The notes under the pieces were generated by a model. The model ran no database searches. It was not told where the DNA came from and was given only the letters and a program-made list of their open reading frames with translations. 64,000 bases of DNA. Source: a virus. Lineage: Duplodnaviria > Caudoviricetes. Within the stretch, counting starts at the first letter, position 1; every line of letters begins with the position of its first letter. The DNA lies in IMG/VR virus record IMGVR_UViG_3300036778_000017, positions 9,981-73,980 of that record; one strand, given 5' to 3'. The position numbers and the translations under genes were made by a program. Below, piece by piece: positions 1 to 60,598 of this stretch.

Positions 1-40
1 ATGCACGCCTTCGCGTCGCCCTTGAATGAGTAGCTCCAGC

Positions 41-322
41 TCATGATCCTGCTCCCTGCGGAGGAATGAGAGGTTTCGCTCTGGCCAACTCCGCCTTGGC
101 CAGGATCTCGAGACTGTCGGCGATGCGCTTGATGTCGCTGAGCACCAGAGCACCGAGCGTGTGAAGAGCCTCCTCTCCAGCCTCGGCTGCCTCCTTCGCC
201 ATGGTCGCGGCCTGCGCGACTGTGGACCCGCTCTTCAGTGCCTCGTCCACGCCTCGGTCGGCTGCCTTGAACGAACTCACGATCACGCCGAGCAGCGTGT
301 GGATCTCATTATCAAGCGGCAT
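41..322 (-). CDS. hypothetical protein downstream of terminase small subunit
   Basis: 93 aa ORF whose start overlaps the terS stop; same strand as the late operon. Confidence 0.6.
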   Translation of the reverse strand: MPLDNEIHTLLGVIVSSFKAADRGVDEALKSGSTVAQAATMAKEAAEAGEEALHTLGALVLSDIKRIADSLEILAKAELARAKPLIPPQGAGS

Positions 323-860
323 CGTCTATGTCCTCCTCGTCGTTGTCTGTCTGCACCGGCTCGTCTGCGAGCGAGGCGTCTGCTCCCTCGTAGCCCCTGC
401 CGTCGAGCTCGTCGTCGTAGTCCTCCTCCTGCCGCTCGTGAACAGCACGAGCGACGCCCTCGGCCAGCGACCGAAGAGCCGGGGGCACCGGAAGCCCGCG
501 CTCGGTGAGGCGATCGACTGCCTCCTGCGCGGACAAGGTGCGGTCCGTCTTGTCGTGGACGTCGACCTGAAGGGGCATCACCTTCTCCAGCATGCGACCG
601 AACACGGCTGGTTCAGCCCGCGACAGCCAGACGAGATACCCGACGGCTCCGTCCTTGCCCTTTCCGTCTCGACCAGAGGCCTCCGCAGCGGCGAGGATCG
701 CCTCCTTCAGGCGAACCCCGAACTTGTTCTTGGCTCCCTTGGGTCTACCGAGACCCTCCTGTCCCTTCTTGAACGGAACGAGGTTCTGCGGATTTCCTCG
801 ACGACCCTTGGGCATCTTGGGAGCGCGAACACTCTTCCGCTTGTGAGAGGACTTCGCCAC
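312..860 (-). CDS. terS: terminase small subunit
   Basis: GNPQNLVPFKKGQ..GRPKGAKNK motif typical of phage terS N-termini; GTG start with GAGGAAGG RBS; acidic tail. Confidence 0.8.
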   Translation of the reverse strand: MAKSSHKRKSVRAPKMPKGRRGNPQNLVPFKKGQEGLGRPKGAKNKFGVRLKEAILAAAEASGRDGKGKDGAVGYLVWLSRAEPAVFGRMLEKVMPLQVDVHDKTDRTLSAQEAVDRLTERGLPVPPALRSLAEGVARAVHERQEEDYDDELDGRGYEGADASLADEPVQTDNDEEDIDDAA

Positions 861-901
861 GGATCCTTCCTCAGTTTTCCTGCGCGTTAAATATCAGGGA
901 C

Positions 902-913
902 CACGCTACCGCC
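902..913 (-). promoter_or_regulatory. ops element (RfaH recruitment/pause site) GGCGGTAGCGTG
   Basis: + strand cacgctaccgcc at 902-913 is an exact match to the ops consensus GGCGGTAGnnTG on the sense strand, about 40 nt upstream of the terS start and just downstream of the NusG-family gene. Confidence 0.85.
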
Positions 914-969
914 GCCCCGGACTGAATGCCGAGGGATTGCAGAGCGCCTTGCGCATGTGTCGAGCTCTT

Positions 970-1479
970 TCAGGCGAGCTCGGTGACCCGATACTCCGTC
1001 GTGCGAACCTCGCGGCCCAGCAGACTGAAGAGTACCTCGACCCGACCACTCGACTGCATCTGTGTCAGCAGACCCGCCGAACCGGCGAACCGCCCTGAGC
1101 GGGGGACAACTGTGTCCCCGACACGATGCAGCTTGGTGACAGGATCGATGTAGTATCCCGCGTCATCTACGCTATCGCTGAGGAAGAACTGCAAGTCGTC
1201 ATCCGCCAACTTGGCAGGCTCACCGCAGTTCATCAGCAGCGAAGAGACGCCGCGAGTATTCCTGATCGACCACCACGCCTTCGTCTCCCTGACGAACACG
1301 TAGCCCTCGAACAGTGCGACAACACGACGGACGCCAAGACGGTTCGGCTCAGTCCTCATCAGCGGAAGCTCGACCTCGTAGCCCTGTCGGCTCAGGTGCC
1401 GACGAGCCTCGAGCTCGCTGTGCTCGTGAGTCGTCGCCACGAGCCATCCCAACTTTCGCTTCCGTGAGTTCCTCGCCAT
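970..1479 (-). CDS. RfaH/NusG-family transcription antiterminator (NGN + KOW)
   Basis: WLVATT..ARRHLSRQGYEVELP and LFEGYVFV (NGN); VGDTVVPRSGRFAG..GRVEVLFSLLGRE (KOW). Start refined to ATG 1479 with GAGG RBS. Confidence 0.9.
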   Translation of the reverse strand: MARNSRKRKLGWLVATTHEHSELEARRHLSRQGYEVELPLMRTEPNRLGVRRVVALFEGYVFVRETKAWWSIRNTRGVSSLLMNCGEPAKLADDDLQFFLSDSVDDAGYYIDPVTKLHRVGDTVVPRSGRFAGSAGLLTQMQSSGRVEVLFSLLGREVRTTEYRVTELA

Positions 1480-1828
1480 TCCGCCCTCGCCCGCCGCTGG
1501 CCAGCTGCCCAACACAACCCACAACCGCCAGCGGCCAAACCCTGCCACGGCATTCCGCTGATCCGCAAGGCCCCCTTCGGCGGCGGAACCCTCGCGCCTA
1601 ATCGCGGCTCCGCCAATGATGAGCGCATGCACAAGCGCACGTTCATCACGGGCATCCCCGTGTCGCGTGAATTGCTTGCAACCTGCATTTTTCCGTTTGC
1701 CCAGCAATTACAAGCACTTGACATGCAACCACCCCCGCCCTCCTGCAACCACTTTCGGGCATGATCCGTCACCTGAACGATGACTTTGTATCGCAAAGCG
1801 GATGCACCGGGCAGTCACAAACAAAAAG

Positions 1829-1837
1829 TTATGCACA
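1829..1837 (+). promoter_or_regulatory. DnaA box TTATGCACA
   Basis: fits TTWTNCACA; part of a 19-bp sequence (1824-1842) repeated in inverted form at 23823-23841. Confidence 0.6.
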
Positions 1838-1911
1838 GCCCCCGGCGGACCACTTTTTCGGCTGCGCTCCGCCCCGGCCGGGCCTAAAATGCCCGCTCTT
1901 GTGGTTGCAAC

Positions 1912-39188: not shown

Positions 39189-39458
39189 CGGTGCAACCTG
39201 TAGTGCCCCGCCCGGGTGCCACTGGTATTTAGGTGTTCCCCGCCAGCATGCCCTAGAACGCCATTAGCGGACCGCTGGATGGCCCTGCCCAGTTTTGGCT
39301 ACCACCCTAGCGCCCCGGGGGCCGCCAGCGCACCAGCGCCCGGCCGCCCGGGGCTGGCGGGGCGCGCAAACCCGGGCCGGGCAGCTGCCCGGGCAGGGCA
39401 GGGGCCGCCCGCGCCCGGGCCGCAGGCGCGGCCACTGGAGGCCGCGACAGCGCCGCGC

Positions 39459-39875
39459 CTAGCTGTCCGCTCCGATGTTGAACGTGACGGAGCCACTGAG
39501 AAACTTCACGCTCGATCCGATGGCGACAGTGATCGGACCGCCCGCCACTGCTCGAGACGCGTACATGTGACCGGCCGAGGCGTCGTCGAACAGCGCGAAG
39601 TGAGAGATGTTGACCGGCCCCGTCTCCGACAGACCCCAGTCAACGTCGATGTTGGACGTCAGCAGATGCAGCGCTCCGGACGCCAGTGCAGCGAACGTGA
39701 TGGACTGCCGCTTGCCCGCGCTCTTGACGGAGGCCCCGACCTCGGTGCCCGTGGTCTTCGGGTTGCCGTTGAACAGCCCGAGAAAGAGTGTCGTCGGCCG
39801 TGACGGCATGTCGGCCTGATTGTTCAGCCAGCGAAGCGTGATATTGCCGAAGTATGGAGTGAGATCAGAAGCCAT
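39459..39875 (-). CDS. phage tail fibre-associated small structural protein
   Basis: LFLGLFNGNP..ISHFALFDDASAG family pattern; last gene of the late operon. Confidence 0.65.
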   Translation of the reverse strand: MASDLTPYFGNITLRWLNNQADMPSRPTTLFLGLFNGNPKTTGTEVGASVKSAGKRQSITFAALASGALHLLTSNIDVDWGLSETGPVNISHFALFDDASAGHMYASRAVAGGPITVAIGSSVKFLSGSVTFNIGADS

Positions 39876-39884
39876 GGTGCGCCC

Positions 39885-40379
39885 TCAGTAGTAGTGGAAG
39901 ATAACTGGAATGCTGGTGAACGCTGCGGCAAAGATGCTCGCGTAGATCCACACGCGACCCTTCCAGTCCGGCGGCGTGAAGATGTAGATGCCCCGGAGAA
40001 GTCCGAGACAGAAGATTGTGCCTGCGACGAGATAACTGATGGTGTCGAACATGGTCGTCGCCGCGAACATGCCGACACCGGCCGTTGTCTGTGCCAGAGT
40101 ATCGTCAATGTGGATGACATGCACGTGCAGACCATAGACGTATGTCTTCCACACGCTGAACGTCCGGTACGCCTCGGCACCGAACACCCAGAAGAGAACG
40201 CACGCAGTTGGAACACCGGGCAGTCCAGCCCAGCGCTGATAGTTGGCAGGACCAGACGTGGCCCAAGTGTCCCACAGAAACACCGAGATCATGATCGTCA
40301 GGGTGAACAGCAGAATGAAAGCCACACCATTGATACACTCACGCATGAACGCTTGATGATTGACAATGAAGTCGATCAC
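39885..40379 (-). CDS. multi-pass membrane protein
   Basis: about 4 hydrophobic segments. Confidence 0.7.
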   Translation of the reverse strand: MIDFIVNHQAFMRECINGVAFILLFTLTIMISVFLWDTWATSGPANYQRWAGLPGVPTACVLFWVFGAEAYRTFSVWKTYVYGLHVHVIHIDDTLAQTTAGVGMFAATTMFDTISYLVAGTIFCLGLLRGIYIFTPPDWKGRVWIYASIFAAAFTSIPVIFHYY

Positions 40380-40627
40380 TTCAGTTCCTCTCGACGAATG
40401 GCCATCCGCTCAAAATCAGCGAATGAGTTTGTCCTGGACTTGGCTATCTGGATGGACCGCCGCAGGGCCTCGTTGCCACGCGACCGTCTTGCAATTGATC
40501 TTTGTACTCTCTCGACAATCTTGCCCACGTCGTGGGCCATGTCGTCTGTCTCTGCATTGAGGTATTCATCGCGGGTGGCATGTGTGACGCGAAACATCGC
40601 GAGGAACCTTTCCAATTGCCTGATCAT
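40376..40627 (-). CDS. hypothetical protein
   Basis: ATGA overlaps. Confidence 0.6.
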   Translation of the reverse strand: MIRQLERFLAMFRVTHATRDEYLNAETDDMAHDVGKIVERVQRSIARRSRGNEALRRSIQIAKSRTNSFADFERMAIRREELK

Positions 40628-41202
40628 ATCTTGCGCCTTCTACTGACGGTTGTTACCTGCCCCAGCAAGTTGCGCATTTCAACGACCTGAGCCTGTCCCG
40701 CCCCACGAATGGCATCTGCCATCTTGTTGGACATGTCGTCTATGGACTTTCTCACGTCGCTCACGTACTGCAGTGAGAGAGTTCTGTTCTCCATCACGGC
40801 AGCGTTCAAGGCACGGATAGCATCAGCCATGCTCTCCACCGCCTTCGCACTGGCGGCATTGTGATCCTTGATGTTATCATACTGCGCAAGGATCGATACC
40901 TTGAGTAACTCGAACGCCTGCGCCTGCTTCTCGAGCAGACGCGCCTGTTCCTCCGTCAGTTCGTTTCTCTCGTCAGTGACTTTCAGCATGTCGGTGAGAA
41001 CCTTGCCGGTGTCACTGAGCGTCTTGTTCAAGGTGTCCCGCTCCTGCAGTCGGTATCCATAGATCTTGTCTGCGCGGGCCTGCATCTGTCTGATGTAGGC
41101 TATGGACGCGGCCTGCGTCCCGCATAGAACGAAGATTATGGCTCCCGGCAAGCCGAGACCCTCCAGTATGTGGACGATCCACTCAGGGATCATTGGTATC
41201 AC
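40624..41202 (-). CDS. membrane-anchored coiled-coil protein (lysis cassette; holin/antiholin-like?)
   Basis: N-terminal TM GLPGAIIFVLCG followed by a coiled coil. Confidence 0.55.
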   Translation of the reverse strand: MIPMIPEWIVHILEGLGLPGAIIFVLCGTQAASIAYIRQMQARADKIYGYRLQERDTLNKTLSDTGKVLTDMLKVTDERNELTEEQARLLEKQAQAFELLKVSILAQYDNIKDHNAASAKAVESMADAIRALNAAVMENRTLSLQYVSDVRKSIDDMSNKMADAIRGAGQAQVVEMRNLLGQVTTVSRRRKI

Positions 41203-41456
41203 CTCTTGGGCGTGAAGCCCGAACAGTGCAGTGATTGACCATACTGATTGTGAGCAAGGATCTCACGAGCAGTGATGTCTGTGAACTGATCATCCTTCGA
41301 CACCCTGATGGCTGACCATCCGGTGCAGACGCCTCCACCACAGCCCGCGAGACTAGTCGCGACGCCACTTATCAAGATCAGTCTTAACAGTCTTCGGGTC
41401 CATCTTCGCGACATTGTCGTCAACCTCCTTTCGCTTCTTGAGCGCGTCTGCGTCAC
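41199..41456 (-). CDS. o-spanin-like lipoprotein
   Basis: lipobox LAGC; overlaps the 3' end of the upstream i-spanin-like gene. Confidence 0.65.
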   Translation of the reverse strand: MTQTRSRSERRLTTMSRRWTRRLLRLILISGVATSLAGCGGGVCTGWSAIRVSKDDQFTDITAREILAHNQYGQSLHCSGFTPKR

Positions 41457-41685
41457 GCTGCCTCTCGCGCTCCTCCTCGTCGTGACTGCCCTTGTATCTT
41501 CCTCCCACGTATGCGAGGAATATCGCAGCGATGCCGCCGAGCAGCCACTTGAGCCAGCCCGGCAGAATGTTCCACAGCGGTATCAGCACTGGCGAGAAGA
41601 AGTAGAACAGCGCGCCAGCGCCGAGCACCGCAACGACAACGTATACCCAGACGGGTATGTGGTCGACGATGAAGTTCCAGATCAT
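41353..41685 (-). CDS. i-spanin-like membrane protein
   Basis: TM helices followed by a charged helical tail, right after the endolysin. Confidence 0.55.
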   Translation of the reverse strand: MIWNFIVDHIPVWVYVVVAVLGAGALFYFFSPVLIPLWNILPGWLKWLLGGIAAIFLAYVGGRYKGSHDEEERERQRDADALKKRKEVDDNVAKMDPKTVKTDLDKWRRD

Positions 41686-42683
41686 GCTGCCTTCTTAACC
41701 TCCGTATCCCCCGCCGTGCGTCCGCTCTGCGTCACGGTTCCCGGAGCGATGTTGCCGGTCGCCGATCCCTGAGCGGTCGGGTCGACGTAGTGCGCCTTCA
41801 CCTCGTCCGGAACGATGTCGTTCTGGTTCGCGCCCTGAACGGGGGCTAGGTTGAGGGCGTCGGTGAGTTCGGCGTTCTTCTTGCGAGCGTACCACGACCA
41901 GAGCAGTCCGCCGCCCGTGAGCAGTGCGCCCGCGACCACGATGCCGATCAGGACCTGATCGACGAGGTGCGAGTTGCCCTGAAGCGGCTGAAGTGTGGAC
42001 TGGATGGTCGTCAGCGTCGTCGTGACGGCACCGCCCGCCGAGGTCGCGTCCGCTGGAGCAGTCGAGACAAGTGGCTTCGCGTCCACAAGCGTCGCCTTCT
42101 TGTTCATGTTCGGAGACCAGACGACCTCCGGACCCACGGAGCCCGATGCCCAAGCCTGACCGATCTTCTTCAGCTGGTTGACGCGGCTCGTCCAGCCATT
42201 GCCGAAGTGGTAGAACGTCTTCAGGCCCTGAAGGAACGCCATGCGCCGCGCGAGAATGTTGGCGACCAGAGCATCATCGTCGTTGTAGTTGTAGATGGCC
42301 TGCATCGTGACGTCGCCCAGCACGCCGTCCGGGTTTAGACCAAGAGCGCGCTGTACCCACTTGATGGACTGGCCAGGACCAGAGTTGATGGCACCGTCGG
42401 CAACGACGACGTCGATGCCGGGAGGGAGCTCGTCGAACCTGATCTTCTGACCGTAGTTCTGCCAGTAGATCGCGTCGCGCTCCGCGTCCGTCATCGTGAA
42501 GACGTCGCGGTTTGGCTTGCCGTTCTTCTTGAGCCAAGCCGAGAACTCACGCTGGATCACACCCTGATTGGTGCGACCGCCCGGATCGATTGGGTCGTCG
42601 TCCTTGCCACCCTCGAACCTCAACTCGATCTTCATCGCGTCAGCCCAAGAGTGCTGCTTTCCGTGGCTATCCACTTGTGTCAT
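41682..42683 (-). CDS. endolysin, glycoside hydrolase family 108 + peptidoglycan-binding domain + C-terminal TM
   Basis: FEGGKDDDPIDPGGRTNQGV; DGAINSGP; FGNGWTSRV. Confidence 0.9.
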   Translation of the reverse strand: MTQVDSHGKQHSWADAMKIELRFEGGKDDDPIDPGGRTNQGVIQREFSAWLKKNGKPNRDVFTMTDAERDAIYWQNYGQKIRFDELPPGIDVVVADGAINSGPGQSIKWVQRALGLNPDGVLGDVTMQAIYNYNDDDALVANILARRMAFLQGLKTFYHFGNGWTSRVNQLKKIGQAWASGSVGPEVVWSPNMNKKATLVDAKPLVSTAPADATSAGGAVTTTLTTIQSTLQPLQGNSHLVDQVLIGIVVAGALLTGGGLLWSWYARKKNAELTDALNLAPVQGANQNDIVPDEVKAHYVDPTAQGSATGNIAPGTVTQSGRTAGDTEVKKAA

Positions 42684-45496
42684 GTCTTTCGTCCTGTGCT
42701 GATGACCATCTGCTGAGGGATGATCAGTGGTGAGAAGCTGCCGAAGCCGTCCAGCGCGTCGCTGTCGCCATCGCTGAAATCTGCGGACAATGTGAAGTTG
42801 GCCGTCACCGCTAGTGTGCCGGACATCGCGTCGTCGTCACTGTCGCTGAAGTGTATCTGGTTCGGACTGCCCGCCACGACAGTGGGCGAGCCAGACATCG
42901 TGTCGTCGAAGTTGTCCGAAAAGCCGCCGGACAAGGACACGCCGACATCCTGCGAGTCCAGGACGTTGAACATGATCTGATACAGATTGATGGCACCGAA
43001 CGCCGGACCACTCTCGAGCACCATGCGCCAGTGCTGTATGCCGTCACCGATCGCCGGATCCCCGACCAGCCCGAAGCCGTCCGTGGTCGGAGCGACCATG
43101 TACGTGCAGGCTTCTCGGAAGTGCCACGAGGGACCGACCTGAGCGTAGGTCGAACCGTCAGTGGAGATCTCCCAGTGCCACTTCCCGAAGACCGTTGGGT
43201 TGCCGCCAGAGTCGAAGGCCTCCTGCGCGTTGGAGTCGACCTGGAACAGAACGTGATTGATCACGACCTTTCGTGGGAACGTGAACTCGATGTAGGCACC
43301 GACTGTGGACATCGGCGTCCCGGCATTCAGTCCTGTCCCGATCTGAGACACGGTGTACGTGTGACCACCGGAGTCTATCGTCAGGTTGTCTCCGTCGAAC
43401 AGCGCGTCCGCAGGATCGAAGTACGGAGCGCTCGGTCCGCGGAACACCCAGCCCGGCCCGAGTGAGAAGCCAACCTGCTTCTCTGGTCGTCCATTAGTCG
43501 ATCGTCTGTCACCACCATCGAGCACTGAGTGAGCAACCTTGACGCGAAGCTCTGAGCCGAACTTGGACTCACCACTGAACGTAGAGGCACCGACCCACAC
43601 GAACTCATAGTGCGGCCACAATATTGGATTTCGCGGAGTGATCTGATACTCCGTGAAATTCATGCCGTGATACTGCGGGTCTGTGAGAACAGACGTCTCT
43701 GTCTCTGCAGGCGAGAAGGCGTCGAACTCTATCGCATACGAGTCATTGCTGATCTCGCCGACGCCCACACCACCGACAAACTTGAAGCGACTGGTGTCCT
43801 GCAGATCGAGTGTCTCCGGACCAACGAGCGCCAGACCACGAACCTCGATGCCCCACACTCCGGTATCAAACCAGTGTGCCCAGTTTGCAGGTTGAGATCC
43901 ACCGCCGAACGTGAAGCCGTTGCCTCCGGAGTACGCTGCGTCGTACAGTTGAGAGACAGGAGTGCTGCCAGCCTTCCCGTATATGCCAACGGTCATGAGA
44001 CCATTGGCCACGCGATCTCCCTGTGACCAGATGCTGTCCCAGTCCGCCTCGAGATATCGCTTCGCCGGCGATATGTTGGCGGCGATCTCGAAGATCTGGT
44101 GTCCGTCGACCACCGATATGGGGCCACCCTCGCCGGCGATCAACGACACAGTTGCCGTGAGCGTCTGCCCGGGTACGCTCGTCAGGAACTGGCCAGAGAT
44201 GATGGACGCAGTCACTGTCACCGTGTCGCCAGACACTGAGACGCCGCCAGTAGGCGGACCCGTGTCGCCGGGACCGGCAAACGCGAACGCCAGAAGACCC
44301 CAGTCTGCAACGGAGCTACCGAACGTCAGGGTCTGCGAGGTGCTGGCGCTCGACGGATCCGGGTACTGTCTGGCGAAGCCAAGCTGAGACTTCTTCGTGT
44401 TCGTGAAGGACGGACCAGCCATGTAGAGAAGGGAACCGTTCGCAACGCCAACCGATCCCGTGTTCCCAGTGGACGAGTTACCAGACAGGACGTAGGTCTG
44501 ACCAGCACCGTCAGTCGTCATGGAGACGGTGGGAGCACTCGTGGTGCCGCCAGTCACTGATGCAGACTGAACTCCCGCCTGATCGAACGGATTGTCCGGG
44601 TCCTGCAGATTGCGCATCGTGAACGCGACCATGACGCCCGCGTCATTGTTCGGACTCCAAGCGACGGTAATTCTACCGTCCTTGATCTGCGTCGTGATCT
44701 TCTTGTACCAGACCTCCAGGGTCTGGGTCGTCGACGATCCAGTCCACTTCTCAAACGCATATTGAGCTAGGGTGTTCGAGCCCGTCCCCGTGACACTAGT
44801 CGCTCCGAACGCCGTCAGGCTGTTGGACACCGCGTGCAGAACAACGACCAGAACGTCGTTGACATCAGCAGAGAAGAACCCACGATTGGTGCTGCTCGCA
44901 CCATTGAAGAGGAAGTCCTGCATGAAACCAATGTTCATGCAGGAGTTGCCGGAGTCCGCAGTGTTCCAGTCGGAGAAGCCCGAGGGCGCAGTCTGCGCCC
45001 AGCTGCCGGAGTCCGAGACGATATCGACCGTGCACGCATTCTGCAGGAACGCGTGAGGGTCTAGAGCAGGACGCTCCGGGATAGCGATGCCACCAGTCCC
45101 AGTCGCTGGGTTGGCCGTGCCAGATCCGTTCCAGTTTCCATTGTCGATCCTGACCCACAGCAGATTGTTGTCGAGATCAACAGCGAAGCAGACCGTGTGA
45201 CCAGCGACAGTTCCGAGACTCATGCCACTACCGGAGCCCCACGTCGACAAGTACGTGCCGCTGCTCTGGAACCGTATCGCGAAGAACGTGTTGTCGTCCG
45301 ACACCATCGCCGAGCAGCCGAAGCCGACAGTGAAGGTCGTGCCGCTCAGGTTCTGAAATTCGATATAGCGCTTGCCCTTGTCGCGGGGCGAGTTCGCGCG
45401 GATCTGGTTGTTGCCGGACGAGGTGGTGGCGGTCTTGTTGCTGTTGGATAGCGTGATGCCAGCAGACTTGTGAAACGTAGACCAAGAGATCGTCAT
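42680..45496 (-). CDS. tail tip/receptor-binding protein with N-terminal SPRY/ConA-like domain
   Basis: GKRYIEF..VCFAVDLDNNLLWVRIDNGNW; Gly/Ser/Thr-rich beta-strand character. Confidence 0.7.
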   Translation of the reverse strand: MTISWSTFHKSAGITLSNSNKTATTSSGNNQIRANSPRDKGKRYIEFQNLSGTTFTVGFGCSAMVSDDNTFFAIRFQSSGTYLSTWGSGSGMSLGTVAGHTVCFAVDLDNNLLWVRIDNGNWNGSGTANPATGTGGIAIPERPALDPHAFLQNACTVDIVSDSGSWAQTAPSGFSDWNTADSGNSCMNIGFMQDFLFNGASSTNRGFFSADVNDVLVVVLHAVSNSLTAFGATSVTGTGSNTLAQYAFEKWTGSSTTQTLEVWYKKITTQIKDGRITVAWSPNNDAGVMVAFTMRNLQDPDNPFDQAGVQSASVTGGTTSAPTVSMTTDGAGQTYVLSGNSSTGNTGSVGVANGSLLYMAGPSFTNTKKSQLGFARQYPDPSSASTSQTLTFGSSVADWGLLAFAFAGPGDTGPPTGGVSVSGDTVTVTASIISGQFLTSVPGQTLTATVSLIAGEGGPISVVDGHQIFEIAANISPAKRYLEADWDSIWSQGDRVANGLMTVGIYGKAGSTPVSQLYDAAYSGGNGFTFGGGSQPANWAHWFDTGVWGIEVRGLALVGPETLDLQDTSRFKFVGGVGVGEISNDSYAIEFDAFSPAETETSVLTDPQYHGMNFTEYQITPRNPILWPHYEFVWVGASTFSGESKFGSELRVKVAHSVLDGGDRRSTNGRPEKQVGFSLGPGWVFRGPSAPYFDPADALFDGDNLTIDSGGHTYTVSQIGTGLNAGTPMSTVGAYIEFTFPRKVVINHVLFQVDSNAQEAFDSGGNPTVFGKWHWEISTDGSTYAQVGPSWHFREACTYMVAPTTDGFGLVGDPAIGDGIQHWRMVLESGPAFGAINLYQIMFNVLDSQDVGVSLSGGFSDNFDDTMSGSPTVVAGSPNQIHFSDSDDDAMSGTLAVTANFTLSADFSDGDSDALDGFGSFSPLIIPQQMVISTGRKT

Positions 45497-46629
45497 GTCC
45501 AGCTGAACCTTACTCTGCCGCTCGCACCAGCACCGTTGCCCGAACCGCTCGTGTCTGTCACGCCCGCTCCCACCGAGAAGGCGACAGGATCACCATTCGC
45601 GGGACCATCCACACCCTTCGTCAGCACGTGCTTCACGTAAGCACCGCCTCCGCCTCCGGGCTGCTTCGCCTGAGACGGAGAACCCGATATGTGCTGCGTC
45701 TGAAACGCCGAGCCAGATCCACCGCCGCCCGGAGCAGCGCCGGAGATCCCTGAGTTGAAGTACCCGCCAACGATCGACGGGCTGGAGACTGCTGATCCAC
45801 CCGCGCCTCCGTGAGGAGACGAGCCGCCAGCGCCGGTCACGCCGCTGGCATCAGTCGTGGGAGACGGCGTGCCACCAGCCTGACCGTTCGTGTTCTCTGT
45901 GTTGCCGCCAGACGCGACACCGCCCGCACCGCCAGCGCCAGAGTTGAACACGTTCGACGTGGACTTCTTTCCTCCGCCAGCCGTAAGGCTGTACGTGGTG
46001 CACGTCGTGTCGTGACCGTCAGCGCCCAGCGACGTCAGACCACCAGTGGCACCAGATCCCCAGAGCTCGATGATGAACTTGTCAGTGTACGACCCGTCAC
46101 TTGGAGCATTGAACGTTCCAGCGTGCGAGTTGAACTGCTGGAAATTCGGACCACTGTCGTCCAGAGTGCCCGGATCCGTGCCGCCCGGAGGACCATCCTC
46201 TGGTCTGCTGGATCGTTGTAACAACCGATAGTATCGCTTGTTGATGCCCGTGGCCGTCAGGTCTGTCAGGAGAACATGGTTCGACACCATCTCCTCCTGC
46301 GTGTACTGCCCGAACAGGATGTCCCCCGCTTGCAGCGTGTCGGCAGGAGATGTCGCTGGGTTGTCTGATCCAATCAGCACGGCGGCCCCGATCGTCAGCG
46401 CAGTCTCGACCTCGATGATGAACGCGTTCATGTGAACGGGGGTGCCGAAGTCTAGCTCGAGCGCCGCGAATGAGTGCCCGACGTTGAGCGCACCACCGGC
46501 CACGAACGGATCAGGATACGTGCGAAGGTCGGTCGCGAGCGGAGCCCAGCCCGTGACCTCGTCGCCGTCGACCATGTTGGCGACAACGCCTGTCTTCGTA
46601 GAGAAGCCGAACTGCTTGACGATTGGCAT
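45493..46629 (-). CDS. tail protein with glycine-rich domain
   Basis: IELWGSGATGG..GGGGGAY..GASGRVRFSW. Confidence 0.7.
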   Translation of the reverse strand: MPIVKQFGFSTKTGVVANMVDGDEVTGWAPLATDLRTYPDPFVAGGALNVGHSFAALELDFGTPVHMNAFIIEVETALTIGAAVLIGSDNPATSPADTLQAGDILFGQYTQEEMVSNHVLLTDLTATGINKRYYRLLQRSSRPEDGPPGGTDPGTLDDSGPNFQQFNSHAGTFNAPSDGSYTDKFIIELWGSGATGGLTSLGADGHDTTCTTYSLTAGGGKKSTSNVFNSGAGGAGGVASGGNTENTNGQAGGTPSPTTDASGVTGAGGSSPHGGAGGSAVSSPSIVGGYFNSGISGAAPGGGGSGSAFQTQHISGSPSQAKQPGGGGGAYVKHVLTKGVDGPANGDPVAFSVGAGVTDTSGSGNGAGASGRVRFSWT

Positions 46630-47453
46630 CAGAGATCCTGACGAACGCCGCGGATTGTGAGGCTGAGAGACTTGGCCGTGCTGTCGAGCGCGGGCGGCGG
46701 AACGCCGAGGAAGTCTCCCTCGACGAACGCGACCGCTGCCGAGAACGTGAACGTGCCGCTGGTGTGGCCGGCGAGGATCGTGCCGGTGCCGATGGTGGTG
46801 CTCTCCTTCTTCAGCGTCACCGTGAAGTCAGCGGTCGGCGCAGTGCGGAGCTCGATGACGCTGTCCGTTAGACCGGCGGGCAGGGTCACGGCGCGCGTGA
46901 AGGTGTGACCAAACATGAAGTCGCCACTGTCCACACCACGGCCGGGAACTCCGGGCCAGTAGAACGCGAGGTCGTAGATCGACGAGTCCTCTCCGAACAC
47001 CAGCTGATAGAGTGGATCACCGAAGGTCGGCGAGCCGCTGTCCTCGTCGACGGCGTTGGGATCGAAGATGGCCGGACTGTCGGGACTGGTGTGGTTGATC
47101 AGCACCATGTACAGGCCCTGATGCGGAACCGTGAAGAAGTCCAGCTTCTTGTAGGGAAACGCATTGACCCAGTTGCCGAGCAGACGGAACGTCGCGATCG
47201 GAAGCTGGAACGGTCCTATGTGCGAGCCGTCGCTCATGTTGAGCGTGGCCTGAGAGCCATCCTCGTCCGACACCGTGATGTCCACGATGCTGACAGCAGT
47301 CGGCGGATGCTCCTCGAGATCGAGGACGCGCGTGTGAAGCGTCCAGATGTCGTTGTCTGCTTGAGACGACGTCAGCTTCCCGCCGGTGCCAGCGCCAGTT
47401 CCGGCTCCCCATTTCGTGTTGTCCGTAGTTCTGAAGTCCAGTCCTGCGACCAT
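46629..47453 (-). CDS. tail structural protein
   Basis: position; GLYMVLINHTS carbohydrate-binding-like segment. Confidence 0.6.
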   Translation of the reverse strand: MVAGLDFRTTDNTKWGAGTGAGTGGKLTSSQADNDIWTLHTRVLDLEEHPPTAVSIVDITVSDEDGSQATLNMSDGSHIGPFQLPIATFRLLGNWVNAFPYKKLDFFTVPHQGLYMVLINHTSPDSPAIFDPNAVDEDSGSPTFGDPLYQLVFGEDSSIYDLAFYWPGVPGRGVDSGDFMFGHTFTRAVTLPAGLTDSVIELRTAPTADFTVTLKKESTTIGTGTILAGHTSGTFTFSAAVAFVEGDFLGVPPPALDSTAKSLSLTIRGVRQDL

Positions 47454-47463
47454 CTATCTTCCC

Positions 47464-47856
47464 CTATGTGCCCGGAGCATTCTTGATGACACCCTTCTGG
47501 ATGACCTCAGTGTTGTCCGTATTCGTGTTGCCCTGGAACTTCAGCGAGATCTTCGCACCAGTCTTCGGGTCTCGACCTTGATAGGCCGTCATCTGCTCGG
47601 TGTCGATGAACTGCGAAGTGTCGTCCGGATTGTGCACGCGCACCGTGTCTGTCGTGCGCTGCGTCTCGTTGAAGTTCGCGGGCTTCACCGTCGACTGATC
47701 CTGTGCGGAGAAGTCGAACAGCGTGGCACCGGAGCGGCCCCACGTGACGCCCGGATTATCGATTATCTTTGGCGTCGCGAGCAGCTGCGTCGGCACGCCC
47801 GGTCGAATGGGCGTCAGCTGTGTCGGTCGTACGACGAACTCGAGATGGTTAGGCAT
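47464..47856 (-). CDS. minor tail protein
   Basis: position in the tail module. Confidence 0.55.
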   Translation of the reverse strand: MPNHLEFVVRPTQLTPIRPGVPTQLLATPKIIDNPGVTWGRSGATLFDFSAQDQSTVKPANFNETQRTTDTVRVHNPDDTSQFIDTEQMTAYQGRDPKTGAKISLKFQGNTNTDNTEVIQKGVIKNAPGT

Positions 47857-49714
47857 TGCTCGCGGCCTCCAAGTCTATCTGCTTCACGACGATCAGATCA
47901 GACACACTGATCACGACCTCGTGTTGGAACGGACCGCCCTCCATGGGCACCATCTTCGCAGTGATGGTTGTCGGGTTCGCCTGAAGAATGGCGTCCACGG
48001 CACTCTGGTCGTTCAGCGGTGCCTCCGCCAGCGGCGCGAGAAGTTCTCGCTGAGTGCCCGGGCCGTTGGCCAGTGTCATCTCTATCAGCGAGTTCTGCAC
48101 CGTCAGTCCGTGCAGGAAGTCGACGCCGTCGTCGAACTCCGCGAACTGCGGCATGGTCCACAGAATGTCGGACGTGCCCGTCAGCAGAAGCTGCTGATTG
48201 ACGCGCTCCTGCCAGTCATCCTCGACCCAGTCGTCCTCGACCCACGTCGGGTCGCCGGCAGTAGCGGAGTACGTGCCGCCCTTGCCGACGGCGCTCGCGA
48301 TCGTGATGGTGGTGGTTGCCTCGCCCTGATCACCATCGAGTGTCATCTCATACCCGATGATCTTGCCAGCTGCCTGTCCGCCCGGAAGGCGATGGTCGTG
48401 AAACAGACCGTTCTTGGTCAGGTCGCACAGCCGCAGCGCATCCAGCATCGGCATCGTGATCTGCGTCTCGACTGCACGCGACCGTGTAATCAGGTTCGCG
48501 CGCGCGAGAAGAAGCAGATGCTCAACGGAGTGCATGCCGCGCGGAGTATGCACGTAGTCGCGGCGGCGAACGTCTCCGATCGGTATGGCCATGTCCACGA
48601 CACCGTCGCTCGGGTCACTGACCTTGTTCGCCGAGAGCGTGATGACCATCGACTCGTCCTCACCGGGCAGCGTGACGATGTCCTGCTGATCAGTCTGCAG
48701 CGTGAACGTGACGACCTGACCGAACTCACGATTGGCAGCGTACTCCACCGTCAGTTCCGGCACCGCGTATCCCAGCGACGCGATGATGATCTCGTACTGG
48801 AAGTCCACGCTGGCGTCACCGACACCAGACACCACCTGCCCGATGGTATAAACCGGGAAGAAGATAGAGCCCTCGGCCAGTGACGGCGTGGTGTTCTGCC
48901 ACGTGAAGATGACAGGGACCTTGACCTGAGGCTGCGCTCCGGACACGTCTGTCATGGAGCCAGACACCACGTCCCAACCAGAGCCGAACTTGTCGCCCTG
49001 CTGCGGCCAATCACTGATCAGGCCGCTCATGGTGAACGACGTTGGGATCGGATCAGGCAGAAACAACTCCCGCACCTTGCCGGTCAGGTCCAGACCACCA
49101 GCATCGCTCTGAGACCACGGAATGGTCGCGATCATCTGCACGCTCCGGAGTGGCGTGCTGTTCAGCGTGACAGACATGTTGTCGTAGAAGTGCTGGTTCT
49201 CCTGGACTTCTTCGACACCGTTCTCACCGATCAGCACGTCCGACGCAGTAACAACATGCGTCACTGGATGGATGTGCCAGAGCTTGGAGTACGCCTCCAG
49301 CACCACATCCGGGTCATCCCAGCTGTCTGGCGACACGAATATGGGATCCCAGTACGGCAGGACCTTCATGGTGTTCGCGAGAGTAGTCTTCTGCGCCACA
49401 AAGTTGGACGGTCGAGCCGTGAAGTCCAGCTGCACGAGAGTGTCGAACAGGTTCGTGGGAACACCGATGAGACGACCCTTGCAGATCGCCCGCACCACTG
49501 AGCCGTCAAAGATCGACAGATAGGCCCAGCGCTTGCGGCTCGGGTTCAGTAGACCGATGCGCGGGTTCCTGATCGTGGCTGAGAAGCCAGCGAAGTCACC
49601 CTCCTGCTGGGACTGCCTGAAGCTGAAGACCCACTCGTCCATGCGATCGTGCACCGACGCATCAAACGTGTCGGTCTCGTTGATCCACGCGAAGAATATC
49701 TGTCCAGGAAACAC
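47849..49714 (-). CDS. tail tip/hub protein
   Basis: 621 aa, second gene after the tape measure. Confidence 0.6.
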   Translation of the reverse strand: MFPGQIFFAWINETDTFDASVHDRMDEWVFSFRQSQQEGDFAGFSATIRNPRIGLLNPSRKRWAYLSIFDGSVVRAICKGRLIGVPTNLFDTLVQLDFTARPSNFVAQKTTLANTMKVLPYWDPIFVSPDSWDDPDVVLEAYSKLWHIHPVTHVVTASDVLIGENGVEEVQENQHFYDNMSVTLNSTPLRSVQMIATIPWSQSDAGGLDLTGKVRELFLPDPIPTSFTMSGLISDWPQQGDKFGSGWDVVSGSMTDVSGAQPQVKVPVIFTWQNTTPSLAEGSIFFPVYTIGQVVSGVGDASVDFQYEIIIASLGYAVPELTVEYAANREFGQVVTFTLQTDQQDIVTLPGEDESMVITLSANKVSDPSDGVVDMAIPIGDVRRRDYVHTPRGMHSVEHLLLLARANLITRSRAVETQITMPMLDALRLCDLTKNGLFHDHRLPGGQAAGKIIGYEMTLDGDQGEATTTITIASAVGKGGTYSATAGDPTWVEDDWVEDDWQERVNQQLLLTGTSDILWTMPQFAEFDDGVDFLHGLTVQNSLIEMTLANGPGTQRELLAPLAEAPLNDQSAVDAILQANPTTITAKMVPMEGGPFQHEVVISVSDLIVVKQIDLEAASNA

Positions 49715-50188
49715 TCAGACCTCCTCGAGATCGAGCGACCAGCTGACGGCAGCCCCATACTCGTCTTCATCAATGTTCCACGATATCACATTCATGATCA
49801 GTCGTGGCCGATAGTACACGTGCGCACCCTCATCGAACTCCGATCCAGGAACGACAGTGCGGCCGGGCGTCGCACCGTCGCTCCTGGATAGCCGAGCGAT
49901 GCAGTCAACACTGACCTGCATGCCGGGATAGACACCATCGAAGTTCGGCGGTGCCTGATCGTCCCCAGTGATCGTAGACTTGTACTTGCGAAATCCTGCG
50001 AACGAGATATCCTTCAGCGTGCCGTCCACCATGCGCTTCGGCTGCGACGCCTGATCGATGAGCGTGAGAGTCTGCTTCAGGCCACGCGCCGAGTATGGAT
50101 TGACGCCCATGCCCACGATGCGGAGCAGCGTGTGAGCATTGGGCGCGGTCGGATCGTATACCGACGGATCTAGCGATGGATCGGACAC
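49715..50188 (-). CDS. distal tail protein-like
   Basis: first gene after the tape measure; ends WSLDLEEV. Confidence 0.6.
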   Translation of the reverse strand: MSDPSLDPSVYDPTAPNAHTLLRIVGMGVNPYSARGLKQTLTLIDQASQPKRMVDGTLKDISFAGFRKYKSTITGDDQAPPNFDGVYPGMQVSVDCIARLSRSDGATPGRTVVPGSEFDEGAHVYYRPRLIMNVISWNIDEDEYGAAVSWSLDLEEV

Positions 50189-50189
50189 G

Positions 50190-52739
50190 TCAGTTTCTCC
50201 TGTTGCCGACCCACGAGGGCTTGCGCCCTGCGGATCGGTTCTGCTTCGCTACCGCGTACTTCGTCAGCTTGTTCCCGACGTCCTCCGGCATCAGCAGTCC
50301 CTCGAACGTGTCGTTTCCGATCGTGAGGTTCAGCGCCCGCAGGCCCGCGCTTCCGCTGACGGCACCACCCCCGGCGAAGGCGACGCGAGGAGCGGGGGCC
50401 ACGAACCCTCCGCCGAAGCTGAACCCGCGAATGTCGAGAAGACCTCTGTTGACCGCGTGCATGAAGCCCAGCCCGTACTTCTTCACTGCTCGAGCGCGCA
50501 TGACCCACTCGCCGTCGGACAACCACGCCGGGATCTTGTCTCCGGTCGGACCACCCGGGCCGCGAATGTGTCCGCCCTCCGCAGCGAACGTGGCTGACTG
50601 ACCGACAGTGCCGCCTCCGCCGGAGCCGCTGTCGCTTCCGAAGAACGCACCGATCGCCTTGATCGCGTCTAGCACCGGCTGCAGAACGCTGAGAACAGAG
50701 TTGACGAACTTGGTGGTGGCGTCCTTCGCAGCGTTCCACGCGTCCGTGAACGCCTGAATGACGGAGTTCTTGATGTTATCCCAGACAGACTGGAGCGTGG
50801 CGGGAAGCGCCTGAAAGAACGTGACCACGGCGTTCCACGCGTCGATCACGCCCTGCGCGATGGCACCGACGCTCGACGTGATGAAAGTCCATGCCTGACC
50901 GATCAGCGTCTGGATGCCGGTGCTCAGGTTCTGGAAGAACGTCAGCACGCCGTTCCACGCTGCCACGACGAGAGCCGCCGCAGCGGAGGCCGCGCTCTGG
51001 ATGCCATCCCACGCGGCGCTCAGCACGTCCCCGATGTTCGTGGCCAGCGTCTTGAAGAAGTCGACAGTGGCGTTCCACGCATCGATGACGGCCTGCGTTG
51101 CGGCCTGATTGGTCGCGGAGATCAGCTGCCACGCTGCCACGAAGAATGCGACGACGGCGGCCGTCACGATCTTCGCGTTGTTGAGGAAGTTGGTGAAGAA
51201 CGCGATGACGTCAGTGATCGCCTGCGAGGCCGCAGCTGCGAACGCCTTCCAGTCGATGTTCTTGATGATGAAGAACAGTGCCACGCCCAGCGCAGCCACT
51301 GCGATCGCAGCCGCGCCGAACGAGACCCCGAGCGTGGTCGCGACGATCTCCGTGAGCGTCACGAGCAGAGGGATGCCGGACTTGAGGATGCTGAAGAAGG
51401 TCTTGAAGGCACCACCAGCCGTGGACACTGACACGCCGAACTTGATGACCTGAGCAGACAACTTGCCACCGCCGAGCAGCGTGCTGACAATAGTGATCGC
51501 CTCGCCGAGCACGCCGAAGGACGCCTTGCCGACAGCACCGAAAAGGCGGAGCAGCGTGGTCAGCAGACGGATGGAGCCAGTCACCTGAGCCAGAAGTGCT
51601 ATGATGATGATCGAGCCAGCCGTCAGCTGAGTCCCGAACACGGCATTGATCGTGGAGGCGAGCCCGTTGAAGAACCCGATGACCTTCGTGATGGCTGGGA
51701 CGAGCGTGTTGTTGAAGAAGTCGATGACGCTCGGAGCCGCCGCGATGATGCCGTCGAACACGGCCGCAGCTGCCTTGCCGATGTTCGTAAGGAACAGCTG
51801 AAGCTGAGGACCGTTGTTCGCGATCAGCTGCTGGATCTTGTTCGACGCGTCAACGAAGAACTTGTTGATGGCTCCGAGATTGGCTCCGATGACGGAGTTG
51901 ATCTGGTCCACGAGACCAGCCAGTGCCGGTCCGAAGTTCTGTATGAACGACTGCTTGATCTGATTGACGGTGTTGCCGAAGTTCAGCAGCGACGTCAGGA
52001 GCGGACCACCAAGCGTATCGATCAGCTGATTGAACGCCTCGCGGTCCTTCAGTGACTTCTGCAGATCGTCATTCGCCTTCTTCACAGCCTCCTGCGCGGC
52101 GGCCGTCTGCGCAGCCGTCCTCTGCTGCTCGTCGAAGTCCTTGTTCAGCTGCTGAAGAGCCTGGAAGTACTGGACCCACGTGATCTTCCCGGCGAGCGCG
52201 TCCTGCTGAAGCTTCCGCTGAGCCGCGTCGAGATTGATGTACGCCTGCTGCTGAGTGAGTGACGCGTTGTTCGCGTCGATCTGAGCCTGCGTCTGCTTCT
52301 GCAGAGCATCGCTGGTGCCGTTGACGGTGTTGGCCACCTTGCTCGCAGCGAGCGCCAGACCGACGCCTGCGGCCGCAGCGCCAGCTGTCGCGGTCGCCAG
52401 ACGCTGCGTGAAGCGTCCGACGGCCTGCACCAGCTGGGGGAACTTGTCCGTGACGCCCTGAATAGACTTCTGCAGACTGCCCAGCTGATCGTTGAACTGC
52501 TGAAGCTTGGACGCACCGGCCGCCTGATTGACCTGAGCGACACCAGTCGCGGCCTTCTGGCTCGAAGTTGCGATCTGGTTGGCAGACTTCGAGATGTCAT
52601 TGGAGGCCCGAGTGACGCTCTGGTCAAGCTTGTCGAACGCCGCGGAGCTCTTGTCCGCGAACGACTGGACCTGAGCCGTCGCCTCTTCACCGCCGGTGAC
52701 GGTGATCTGGGATACTAGGTCCTGGTCATCAGTTGCCAT
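50190..52739 (-). CDS. tail tape measure protein
   Basis: 849 aa, Ala-rich, periodic W/F (AAW, DAW) repeats, C-terminal FAAEGG..GPGGPTGDKIPAWLSDGEWV. Confidence 0.9.
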   Translation of the reverse strand: MATDDQDLVSQITVTGGEEATAQVQSFADKSSAAFDKLDQSVTRASNDISKSANQIATSSQKAATGVAQVNQAAGASKLQQFNDQLGSLQKSIQGVTDKFPQLVQAVGRFTQRLATATAGAAAAGVGLALAASKVANTVNGTSDALQKQTQAQIDANNASLTQQQAYINLDAAQRKLQQDALAGKITWVQYFQALQQLNKDFDEQQRTAAQTAAAQEAVKKANDDLQKSLKDREAFNQLIDTLGGPLLTSLLNFGNTVNQIKQSFIQNFGPALAGLVDQINSVIGANLGAINKFFVDASNKIQQLIANNGPQLQLFLTNIGKAAAAVFDGIIAAAPSVIDFFNNTLVPAITKVIGFFNGLASTINAVFGTQLTAGSIIIIALLAQVTGSIRLLTTLLRLFGAVGKASFGVLGEAITIVSTLLGGGKLSAQVIKFGVSVSTAGGAFKTFFSILKSGIPLLVTLTEIVATTLGVSFGAAAIAVAALGVALFFIIKNIDWKAFAAAASQAITDVIAFFTNFLNNAKIVTAAVVAFFVAAWQLISATNQAATQAVIDAWNATVDFFKTLATNIGDVLSAAWDGIQSAASAAAALVVAAWNGVLTFFQNLSTGIQTLIGQAWTFITSSVGAIAQGVIDAWNAVVTFFQALPATLQSVWDNIKNSVIQAFTDAWNAAKDATTKFVNSVLSVLQPVLDAIKAIGAFFGSDSGSGGGGTVGQSATFAAEGGHIRGPGGPTGDKIPAWLSDGEWVMRARAVKKYGLGFMHAVNRGLLDIRGFSFGGGFVAPAPRVAFAGGGAVSGSAGLRALNLTIGNDTFEGLLMPEDVGNKLTKYAVAKQNRSAGRKPSWVGNRRN

Positions 52740-53292
52740 TTGTCATCGCCTGCTTATAGAACGCGCCCATGCTTCGGGCAATCGTCTTGATGATGTCTCG
52801 AAGATGCCACTTCTGCGGGATGCGAACCTGCGCCTTTCCGAAGTACTGAGGTCCGTCCTTCGAGAGGAGCAGTGGTGCACCACCACTCTTGCGATCGACC
52901 CTGAAGAGAGGCTGACCGAAGTCCCGCGCGCGAACGTGCAGGACATCTGCTCGGCTGTTCTTGAGAGGGATCCAGAGAAGCGGCTTGCCGTGAATGATCG
53001 CGCCAAACTCGAACACTCGCCAGTAGGACACTGCGTGCGTAGCCCTGATACGAAGATCCGTCCGCGACTGAAACGACACGAGGGCCTGGAAGCCCTCCTG
53101 CCATCGCTCACTGCCGAAGTTTCCCCCGGCCTTGATGTTCGCGCGACCCTGCGACTCGATCTCGTCCTTGGCCGCCTGAGCAGCTGCCTGAATGGCCGCC
53201 ACCTGACGCTCCGAGAAGTTCTTGGCACGAACCCGAAGCTTCGGGCCAAGCTGATCGACACCGTCCATCTTGAATGTGAGACTACCTGCCAT
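52729..53292 (-). CDS. tail completion/neck protein
   Basis: YWRVFEFGAII pattern resembling HK97 gp10-like proteins. Confidence 0.55.
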   Translation of the reverse strand: MAGSLTFKMDGVDQLGPKLRVRAKNFSERQVAAIQAAAQAAKDEIESQGRANIKAGGNFGSERWQEGFQALVSFQSRTDLRIRATHAVSYWRVFEFGAIIHGKPLLWIPLKNSRADVLHVRARDFGQPLFRVDRKSGGAPLLLSKDGPQYFGKAQVRIPQKWHLRDIIKTIARSMGAFYKQAMTNGN

Positions 53293-53515
53293 TGTCCGAC
53301 AGCTTCTTTCTAAACTCCGTGTATCCGCGCTTGTCAGCGTGCTGAGCAGCGCGATACAGATCCATCACTCGCGCGTCTCGATCCAACTCCTCGCGGGATA
53401 TCAGTTCGAGCCACCCGCTGAGTTGTCGAGGAGTACTGTTCCAGCAGTCTTCCTCTAGCCTTCCGGCGGCGACACACCGTTGGATTGCCCGGGCGATATC
53501 GTACCCGGAGCCCAT
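53282..53515 (-). CDS. tail assembly chaperone, GT-like second frame
   Basis: overlaps the upstream chaperone in the -1 frame; WNSTPRQL. Confidence 0.6.
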   Translation of the reverse strand: MGSGYDIARAIQRCVAAGRLEEDCWNSTPRQLSGWLELISREELDRDARVMDLYRAAQHADKRGYTEFRKKLSDNGR

Positions 53516-53922
53516 CCACGCCCGCCTGTGGACTGGCCGATTAGACCTTGGACTCCTTCGCGAAAACGATCGAGACCTCTCGGAAACGTGAGCTCGATCA
53601 TCTTCATCATCACGTCGAACTGCTCGCCGATGACGAGATTGCTCGCCGCCTCCGCGTGCTTCGCGAGATCGTCAGCATCGTTTACATTCGCCCCCGTGGC
53701 GGCCGCGAGGATCAGCCCTGCGGCCTCCGGGAACTTCTCCACGAGCGTCATCGCCATGTTCGCGTCCGTGAGATTTCCAGTGAGCAGCATCCTGATCTCT
53801 GGAAACGTCAGTAGAACCTTGGCGATGGCCTTCGAGGACAGACCATTCACCGCCAGCTGCTCGCCACGGATCTCTACCGTGCCCTTCGCAGCTGCCGGAG
53901 CGATATCAATCAGACTAACCAT
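53455..53922 (-). CDS. tail assembly chaperone (G-like)
   Basis: lies between the major tail protein and the tape measure. Confidence 0.7.
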   Translation of the reverse strand: MVSLIDIAPAAAKGTVEIRGEQLAVNGLSSKAIAKVLLTFPEIRMLLTGNLTDANMAMTLVEKFPEAAGLILAAATGANVNDADDLAKHAEAASNLVIGEQFDVMMKMIELTFPRGLDRFREGVQGLIGQSTGGRGWAPGTISPGQSNGVSPPEG

Positions 53923-53960
53923 GTTACTTCCCTTCTACCCGTCAGAGAAACTCGTGTCCC

Positions 53961-54997: not shown

Positions 54998-55006
54998 GTG
55001 GTCTCC

Positions 55007-58194: not shown

Positions 58195-58205
58195 CTAGAG
58201 AAACC

Positions 58206-59252: not shown

Positions 59253-59253
59253 G

Positions 59254-60583: not shown

Positions 60584-60598
60584 GATATTCCTCTCGAA

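Follow-up and report, generated by a model that had tools for sequence, protein, structure and literature searches.

On the minus strand of a 64,000-nucleotide (nt) stretch of phage DNA, here called the window, a gene for an RfaH-like paralogue of NusG (970..1479; 169 amino acids) is followed by a 109-nt gap (861-969) that contains an exact ops element, GGCGGTAGCGTG (902..913). The window corresponds to bases 9981-73980 of an IMG/VR record from an uncultured soil phage, which is 73,980 base pairs (bp) long and rated 96% complete, and in which nearly all open reading frames (ORFs) lie on the minus strand. The gap extends from the stop codon of the RfaH-like gene (TGA, 970-972) to the GTG start (860) of the next ORF, and two stem-loops, one over the stop codon (961..982) and one directly before ops (915..934), precede the element on the same strand. 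RfaH and ops are the textbook case of the sequence-specific loading of a universal elongation factor and, to our knowledge, are known almost entirely from enterobacterial chromosomes and plasmids. The comparisons described here make it likely that the phage locus is a self-contained module for elongation control, in which a cis-encoded RfaH-like factor would act at ops to provide processivity and anti-termination for the late operon.

The minus strand is the sense, non-template strand for both flanking genes, and GGCGGTAGCGTG reads along it from 913 to 902, ending 41 nt upstream of the GTG start. The first-pass annotation of this DNA had placed an ops element at these positions, about 40 nt before the next gene, and the match proved exact. 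The ops sequence expected on the non-template strand of an RfaH-controlled unit (GGCGGTAGnnTG) is likewise present without change at 902-913(-). An exact copy of GGCGGTAGNNTG was found once in the window, where shuffles predict 0.08 (a match in 8 of 100), and once in the entire record. When the leader was compared with the Rfam JUMPstart model (RF01707), the match, at 16.8 bits (E 1.6 in 1.3 kb), stayed below the gathering score of 35 and its alignment covered essentially ops alone; in a larger search of 10 loci, no JUMPstart match was listed up to E 10. Judged by its sequence, the 12-mer is a putative loading site for the RfaH-like protein.

The translation of ORF 970-1479 begins with MARNSRKRK, a basic N-terminal arm that is followed by an NGN domain and a KOW domain, and it includes the strings ARRHLSRQG and LFEGYVFV. 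Pfam matched the NusG NGN domain (52 bits), and PHROGs assigned the protein to phrog_6386, 'transcription antiterminator'. The top NCBIfam model was RfaH (TIGR01955) with 66.7 bits, ahead of UpxY (37.1), NusG (27.7) and LoaP (17.7). The score for housekeeping NusG (TIGR00922) did not reach its cut-off of 135.7 bits, and the neighbouring genes are phage genes, not ribosomal ones; the cut-offs for UpxY (100) and LoaP (125) were not reached either. In a search of PDB sequences with the family profile, residues 11-167 aligned to residues 2-158 of E. coli RfaH with 71 bits (E 1e-18), whereas NusG chains scored at most 50 bits. BLASTP against E. coli RfaH (from NC_000913.3) gave an identity of 30% (E 5e-13), and the protein has the two-domain NGN + KOW architecture (~160 amino acids) and a full-length alignment to RfaH. 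A search of 1.8 billion cluster representatives returned a small family, with 9 clusters at E<1e-30, and then thousands of paralogues of 160-170 amino acids. All of the 10 sequence neighbours that were sampled scored best against RfaH, each under its cut-off (42-130 bits), and the closest plasmid homologues (30-36% identity) were mostly alphaproteobacterial and also included enterobacterial rfaH genes. With RfaH the best match in both NCBIfam and PDB, ahead of NusG, UpxY and LoaP, the earlier reading of the ORF as RfaH-like was borne out, short of the equivalog cut-off. From sequence and model together, the protein is RfaH-like but not an RfaH equivalog, and its KOW domain is predicted to adopt the beta state.

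This last point comes from AlphaFold2 run on the family alignment (predicted local distance difference test, pLDDT, 89.5), in which the best model showed a beta-strand KOW C-terminal domain. Foldseek aligned the model over its full length to NusG and to 'fully recruited RfaH' (8phk), and autoinhibited RfaH structures aligned over the NGN domain alone (93-97 columns). Among the fold-switch residues of RfaH, E48 falls in a 2-residue deletion and the equivalents of I93 and F130 are both Leu. The autoinhibited helical-hairpin C-terminal domain of RfaH was not predicted; AlphaFold2 can miss fold switching, and on this model the protein probably lacks autoinhibition. His, His, Arg, Gln and Arg occupy the ops-contact positions K10, H20, R23, Q24 and R73 in the window protein, so that four of the five are kept, and in the family as a whole the consensus reads His, Glu, Lys/Arg, Gln and Arg. 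An Arg/Lys-rich arm of ~10 residues (MARKRKS-like, low pLDDT; 1444-1479(-)) is conserved ahead of the NGN domain and absent from E. coli RfaH; it might touch nucleic acid, for instance the stem-loop directly before ops.

We found 43 metagenomic homologues of the RfaH-like protein and compared 20 loci, namely the window and 19 further distinct loci that were fetched (designated by L numbers). Their order was constant: a divergent gene of ~152 amino acids, a gap of ~420-540 nt, the NusG-like gene, a gap of ~100 nt, a basic protein of 160-198 amino acids, small ORFs and TerL, with the portal gene also in conserved synteny. Related phages keep ops in the gap at a conserved position: GGCGGTAGC[G/A]TG was present 50-75 nt past the stop codon in 12 of the 20 loci (protein identity 47-68%), identical apart from G or A at position 10. 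Among 11 aligned canonical loci, pairwise identity was 95.8% over the ops 12-mer and ~30% over the flanking intergenic DNA. The other loci carried different elements at the same spot: GGCAGCGCATTG in L007 and L023, GCGCAGCGCGTG in L003, GGCGAAGCATG in L004, CTCGGTGCCATG in L024, GCCGGAGGCGTG in L019, GGCGGCGCTTG in L149 and GGCGGCAGCATG in L150. The TG at positions 11-12, the pause core, was kept in all 17 aligned loci, variants included. No locus had a disrupted RfaH-like ORF, and the protein alignment has 10 invariant columns and 27 that are nearly so. These data show that the pairing of gene and ops is real and under selection. No relatives were returned by a single-protein search of viral contigs, by an alignment-based search of genome contigs or by tblastn of 50,697 GenBank phage records; relaxing the latter to E=1 gave just weak matches to gut and Firmicutes phages. 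In one relative, a tRNA gene (L021:4922-4993(+); Rfam 63.7 bits; anticodon loop CAU) stands amid the small ORFs that separate ops from TerL; no tRNA gene was found in the window.

The variant loci allowed the protein and the DNA element to be compared. Loci were classed from DNA alone, and the 161 columns of the protein alignment were then ranked by the number of variant loci with a residue never seen in canonical loci. Results showed that the top two columns were the equivalents of E. coli RfaH Q24 and T68 (6 of 8 variant loci each) and that the K10 column tied for third (5 of 8). All three belong to the 11 residues seen in contact with the ops loop when RfaH was crystallised with ops (PMC5995543), and the chance that both top columns of 161 belong to the 11-residue contact set is ~0.004. 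The equivalents of K10, H20 or Q24 departed from their canonical states (His for K10; Glu for H20, with His in the window protein; Gln for Q24) in all eight variant loci and in none of the 12 canonical ones. Because its residues covary with the DNA element, we argue that the contact surface of the RfaH-like protein is in use. In the tree, five variants formed one weakly supported clade (86/90), L019 and L150 fell beside L017, and L149 resembled L021 in sequence. A count of 5/6 independent cases was rejected, as the tree joins all five variants in one clade; the three further loci bring the number of events to ~3.

As a control for chance adjacency, we sampled 81 GGNNGGCGGTAGCGTG sites in viral contigs and looked for the end of a NusG-like gene within 400 nt upstream. 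There was no such gene near 80 of them. The single exception, L083, is a genuine second example: the NusG-like gene, also assigned to phrog_6386 and 32% identical to the window protein, ends 60 nt upstream of the site. The family of this protein gave 8 viral loci, and in 7 of these the ops core GCGGTAG stands 55-85 nt past the gene, usually with a hairpin directly before it. The layout of gene, hairpin and ops thus recurs in at least two divergent phage lineages. In L083, a PurZ-like gene (2582-3670(-); phrog_1211, 176 bits) precedes the RfaH-like gene and suggests that this phage genome contains 2-aminoadenine.

In the window, the stem-loop directly before ops (hairpin 2; 915..934, minus strand) is GC-rich and its 3′ arm ends 1 nt before the element. 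All 17 loci that were folded have a hairpin of 5-10 bp ending 1-2 nt ahead of the element. Its covariation was tested with 500 shuffles on an alignment not fitted to the structure. Pairing reached 73.7% of cells compared to 62.9% in shuffles (0/500), and the covariation score was 0.31 compared to 0.17 (0/500), with lower values in slid controls; double changes occurred in four of six pairs. The end of the stem lies ~12 nt before T11, a distance near the spacing of hairpin-stabilised (his-type) pauses, and we infer that hairpin 2 prolongs the ops pause. In hairpin 1 (961..982, minus strand), the loop on a 7-bp stem (CGAGCTC/GAGCTCG) holds the stop codon, and a conserved (T/C)ACAT box (955-959) comes next. 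RNAfold placed an equivalent stem over the stop codon in ~13 of the 17 loci, with compensatory changes such as GGAACTG/CAGTTCC. Because it is not followed by a T-run, hairpin 1 is not a canonical intrinsic terminator; together with the (T/C)ACAT box it could be a processing site, a 3′-end stabiliser or part of an unrecognised promoter. The 130-nt leader as a whole showed no unusual stability (z = -0.9), so that support for the hairpins comes from the comparison of loci.

The first gene past ops encodes a basic protein of 182 amino acids (312..860, minus strand; phrog_11043, function unassigned), with a syntenic gene of 160-198 amino acids in every locus. This protein had no Pfam or NCBIfam match, and the earlier label 'terS' was not confirmed. 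The late unit continues to the start of the window (1..322, minus strand) with an ORF of 93 amino acids (41-322), and then beyond it to TerL (L029 7360-8865 in the record, minus strand; Terminase_6N/6C) and to a 698-amino-acid portal ORF (L029:5276-7372 in the record, minus strand) that matched Phage_portal_3 with 325 bits and, in its C-terminal part, the anti-CBASS family Acb1 with 112 bits. TerL and portal lie 1.1-4.7 kb past the 182-amino-acid gene. A gene call of the relative L016 combines the same Phage_portal_3 and Acb1 families. If the record is circularly permuted, the distal part of the late unit is 39299..64000, where all ORFs are on the minus strand and PHROGs matches include a head protease (62378-63862), the major head protein (60798-61763), a tail fibre (55007-57817) and the tape measure (50190-52739). 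On the same condition the late unit would measure ~35 kb, in line with the first-pass estimate of 25 kb or more. The sole strong intrinsic-terminator-like site on the minus strand (35583-35560; 10 bp, 9 GC pairs, T-rich tail) is placed between an ORF of 358 amino acids and the primase gene, which puts it within the replication block, outside the late unit.

Upstream, a divergent control region of ~430 nt (1480..1911) separates the RfaH-like gene from a small plus-strand operon, which makes the RfaH-like gene the first of the late unit. This region presumably holds the late-unit promoter; no sigma-70 promoter consensus was found in positions 1-3000, and a promoter at the (T/C)ACAT box was considered and yielded no acceptable -35/-10 pair. 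A DnaA-box-like TGTGCATAA (1829-1837(-)) is invariant in a 12-locus alignment of the control region, within a block, CTGTGCATAACTTTTT (1821-1842), that is nearly invariant in these 12 related loci and lies ~70 nt from the divergent gene. Three GGTTGCA/GGTTGTA repeats and a CGTGCG-N-CGCACG palindrome (~1690-1760(-)), conserved in the equivalents from L003 to L026, are probably operator or promoter elements for a regulator. No Phage_antitermQ or Antiterm domain was matched in the 73,980-bp record, with control genomes matching as expected, and neither a sigma-70 factor nor a T7-like RNA polymerase was detected in it. These negative results are compatible with dependence on the RNA polymerase of the host.

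From these sequence features, the conservation and the covariation of protein with DNA and of the hairpin arms, we infer the following course of pausing, binding, anti-termination, cis action and timing. Host RNA polymerase would initiate within 1480-1911 and transcribe the RfaH-like gene first. As the polymerase reaches ops, some 35-70 nt beyond the stop codon, hairpin 2 would fold in the nascent RNA, and the pause there (consensus G at -10, T at -1, G at +1) would expose the ops bases on the non-template strand. The phage protein would then grip the exposed ops loop through the NGN face used by RfaH (the equivalents of K10, H20, Q24, T68 and R73) and clamp the polymerase. Riding with the enzyme, the factor would keep off NusG, and hence Rho, and reduce pausing, which would let transcription run to the end of the ~35-kb unit of packaging, head and tail genes; the KOW domain may in addition provide coupling to the leading ribosome. 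Encoded directly upstream in this unit and predicted not to be autoinhibited, the factor probably works mostly in cis, with a feed-forward delay before full late expression. The first-pass proposal of a phage-borne RfaH/ops module heading the late operon thus gains support from conservation, from the covariation of protein and DNA and from the second lineage.

A more far-reaching view, which we advance tentatively and consider doubtful as it stands, is that these phages carry private, co-evolving factor-signal pairs with a hairpin-reinforced pause and possibly a contact between N-terminal arm and hairpin, which would amount to orthogonal RfaH-type switches with dual recognition of DNA and RNA. 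At least four different elements occur at one spot (GGCGGTAGCGTG, GGCGGCAGCATG / GGCGGCGC.., GGCAGCGCATTG and CTCGGTGCCATG), and on this view each would have its matching changes at the equivalents of K10, H20, Q24 and T68. If a putative thymidine-modification cluster in this genome is real, the factor might also need to read a modified T6.

Several observations weigh against an RfaH-type module at this locus. The protein stays well short of the RfaH equivalog cut-off (144.5 bits for TIGR01955, against its 66.7), the HTTT motif of RfaH is replaced by AWWS, the K10 equivalent is His and the E48 equivalent is deleted. Elements at the ops spot are non-canonical in 8 of the 20 loci, the covariation amounts to ~3 independent events and not 8, and L150 keeps His and Gln although T6 of its element is changed to C. 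Then, ops is placed after the factor gene and not in a promoter-proximal leader, and a promoter between the RfaH-like gene and ops is possible. Last, since no intrinsic terminator was found between ops and the end of the record, the obstacle that the factor would overcome is presumably Rho or pausing.

With these points in mind, we weighed the alternative that the 12-mer and its hairpin are some other cis element, such as a late promoter or operator, a pac/terS site or a translational operator, and that the NusG paralogue loads with no sequence specificity. The element does stand immediately ahead of the packaging genes, since no sigma-70 promoter was found upstream, a promoter of unrecognised type could lie close to the (T/C)ACAT box, and a protein predicted to be in the beta state would need no ops for its activation. 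However, the 12-mer is E. coli ops, down to the non-template mini-hairpin bases and the pause core, changes in it coincide specifically with changes at the DNA-contact positions of RfaH, and the ops core also follows a 32%-identical paralogue in another lineage with different neighbour genes. We consider this alternative unlikely. Less likely still is that ops recruits the RfaH of the host, while the phage protein competes with host NusG or RfaH (shut-off) or redirects ops-controlled envelope operons of the host. RfaH homologues are common in Alphaproteobacteria (PMC7593976), and a constitutively active paralogue could displace NusG globally (10.64898/2026.03.16.712203); against this, gene and element are tightly linked in two lineages and the protein covaries with the DNA, both of which point to the phage protein as the reader, and two alphaproteobacterial plasmid loci encode homologues with no ops in the leader. 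That the module is a decaying relic captured from a host, with no present role in late transcription, is very improbable: the diverged protein and the eight non-canonical elements could be taken that way, but the ORF is intact in all loci, ops is 96% identical against 30% for its flanks, the hairpins covary and the position relative to TerL is fixed. All in all, an RfaH-like factor that loads at ops on its own late operon remains our preferred reading.

The sequence hints suggest that the host is probably an alphaproteobacterium. A GcrA-family gene (PF07750) occurs in the late leader region of one relative (L026:4119-4874(+)) and is absent from this record; other hints are the nearest plasmid homologues and the invariant DnaA-box-like sequence of the control region. 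A single CtrA-type box lies at 17631, far from the RfaH-like locus. No prophage relatives were found in 185,579 representative genomes, and a TerL-based prophage search gave one distant match, to a Lachnospiraceae metagenome-assembled genome, which was uninformative. The first-pass annotation was wrong in taking the host group as one not known for RfaH, given that ~18% of rfaH genes are alphaproteobacterial (PMC7593976) and so are the nearest plasmid homologues. Tailed phages, probably of soil Alphaproteobacteria, thus appear to use ops with a 30%-identical paralogue in the role of lambdoid Q, and a candidate for the switch from early to late expression thereby becomes available for a large group of phages not yet cultured. 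Their natural variants of protein-DNA specificity offer material on the evolution of DNA recognition and autoinhibition among NusG paralogues, and such compact factor-signal pairs are possible orthogonal parts for anti-termination.

Compared with E. coli RfaH and ops (waa, hly, kps and tra operons), the phage module shares the NGN and KOW domains and the identical 12-nt non-template sequence; H20, R23, Q24 and R73 are kept in the window protein, and the phage factor, like RfaH, would target a long, horizontally mobile operon. In contrast, the phage protein is 30% identical with a sub-equivalog score, has His for K10, is devoid of E48 and HTTT, and is predicted in the active beta form and not as the autoinhibited alpha-hairpin. 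Its gene is cis-encoded directly upstream of ops, and ops follows a gene where that of E. coli stands in a promoter-proximal leader. Like Rfam JUMPstart (RF01707), the phage leader ends in the ops 12-mer with structure just upstream, but the upstream hairpin differs in sequence and the ops portion alone aligns. With lambda Q/Q21, BrrG and GafZ, the phage factor would share job and position, that of a factor encoded just ahead of a late or virion operon and loaded at a programmed pause, which renders host RNA polymerase resistant to termination. The folds of Q and the phage factor are unrelated, and whereas Q uses a duplex DNA site to load while the polymerase stands at a sigma-dependent pause close to the promoter, the signal of the phage module would be single-stranded non-template DNA at an elemental or hairpin pause. 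BrrG, of the Bartonella gene transfer agent, and GafZ, of the Caulobacter gene transfer agent, were considered as relatives and rejected; BrrG has a Q21-like structure, and the papers relate neither protein to NusG or RfaH.

In a 2026 preprint, structure prediction places about 14% of RfaH homologues in a monomorphic (beta) class, which was shown to be constitutively active and is encoded within or beside long operons (10.64898/2026.03.16.712203). With its AlphaFold2 beta KOW domain and a same-orientation gene in or next to a long operon, the phage protein, as modelled, fits this cis-encoded 'monomorphic' class. Members described there are chromosomal and mostly stand beside lipopolysaccharide or secretion operons; neither a phage context nor a series of covarying ops elements is described in that preprint, and the word 'phage' is absent from its text (10.64898/2026.03.16.712203). 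Our full-text literature search found no characterised phage RfaH-ops pair, in agreement with the first-pass statement; the claim to novelty goes no further, because rfaH-like genes on prophages were mentioned earlier (PMC7593976) and a PrfaH that a plasmid encodes in cis, together with a site resembling ops, was characterised before (PMC11880322), so that the kind of system was already known. IncX3 plasmids encode PrfaH, an RfaH paralogue that is co-transcribed with the operon it activates, has an ops-like site of its own and differs from RfaH in its contact residues (PMC11880322; PDB 9ik0), and by analogy IncX plasmid PrfaH is the closest characterised counterpart of the phage module. The function of PrfaH has been demonstrated, whereas that of the phage module is predicted from sequence; the PrfaH site lies upstream of prfaH and has another sequence, and its target is a type IV secretion operon where that of the phage would be the virion genes. 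Both are RfaH paralogues of mobile elements, co-transcribed with a long operon and provided with an ops-type non-template signal in their own unit, and in both the contact residues change in step with a different target sequence.

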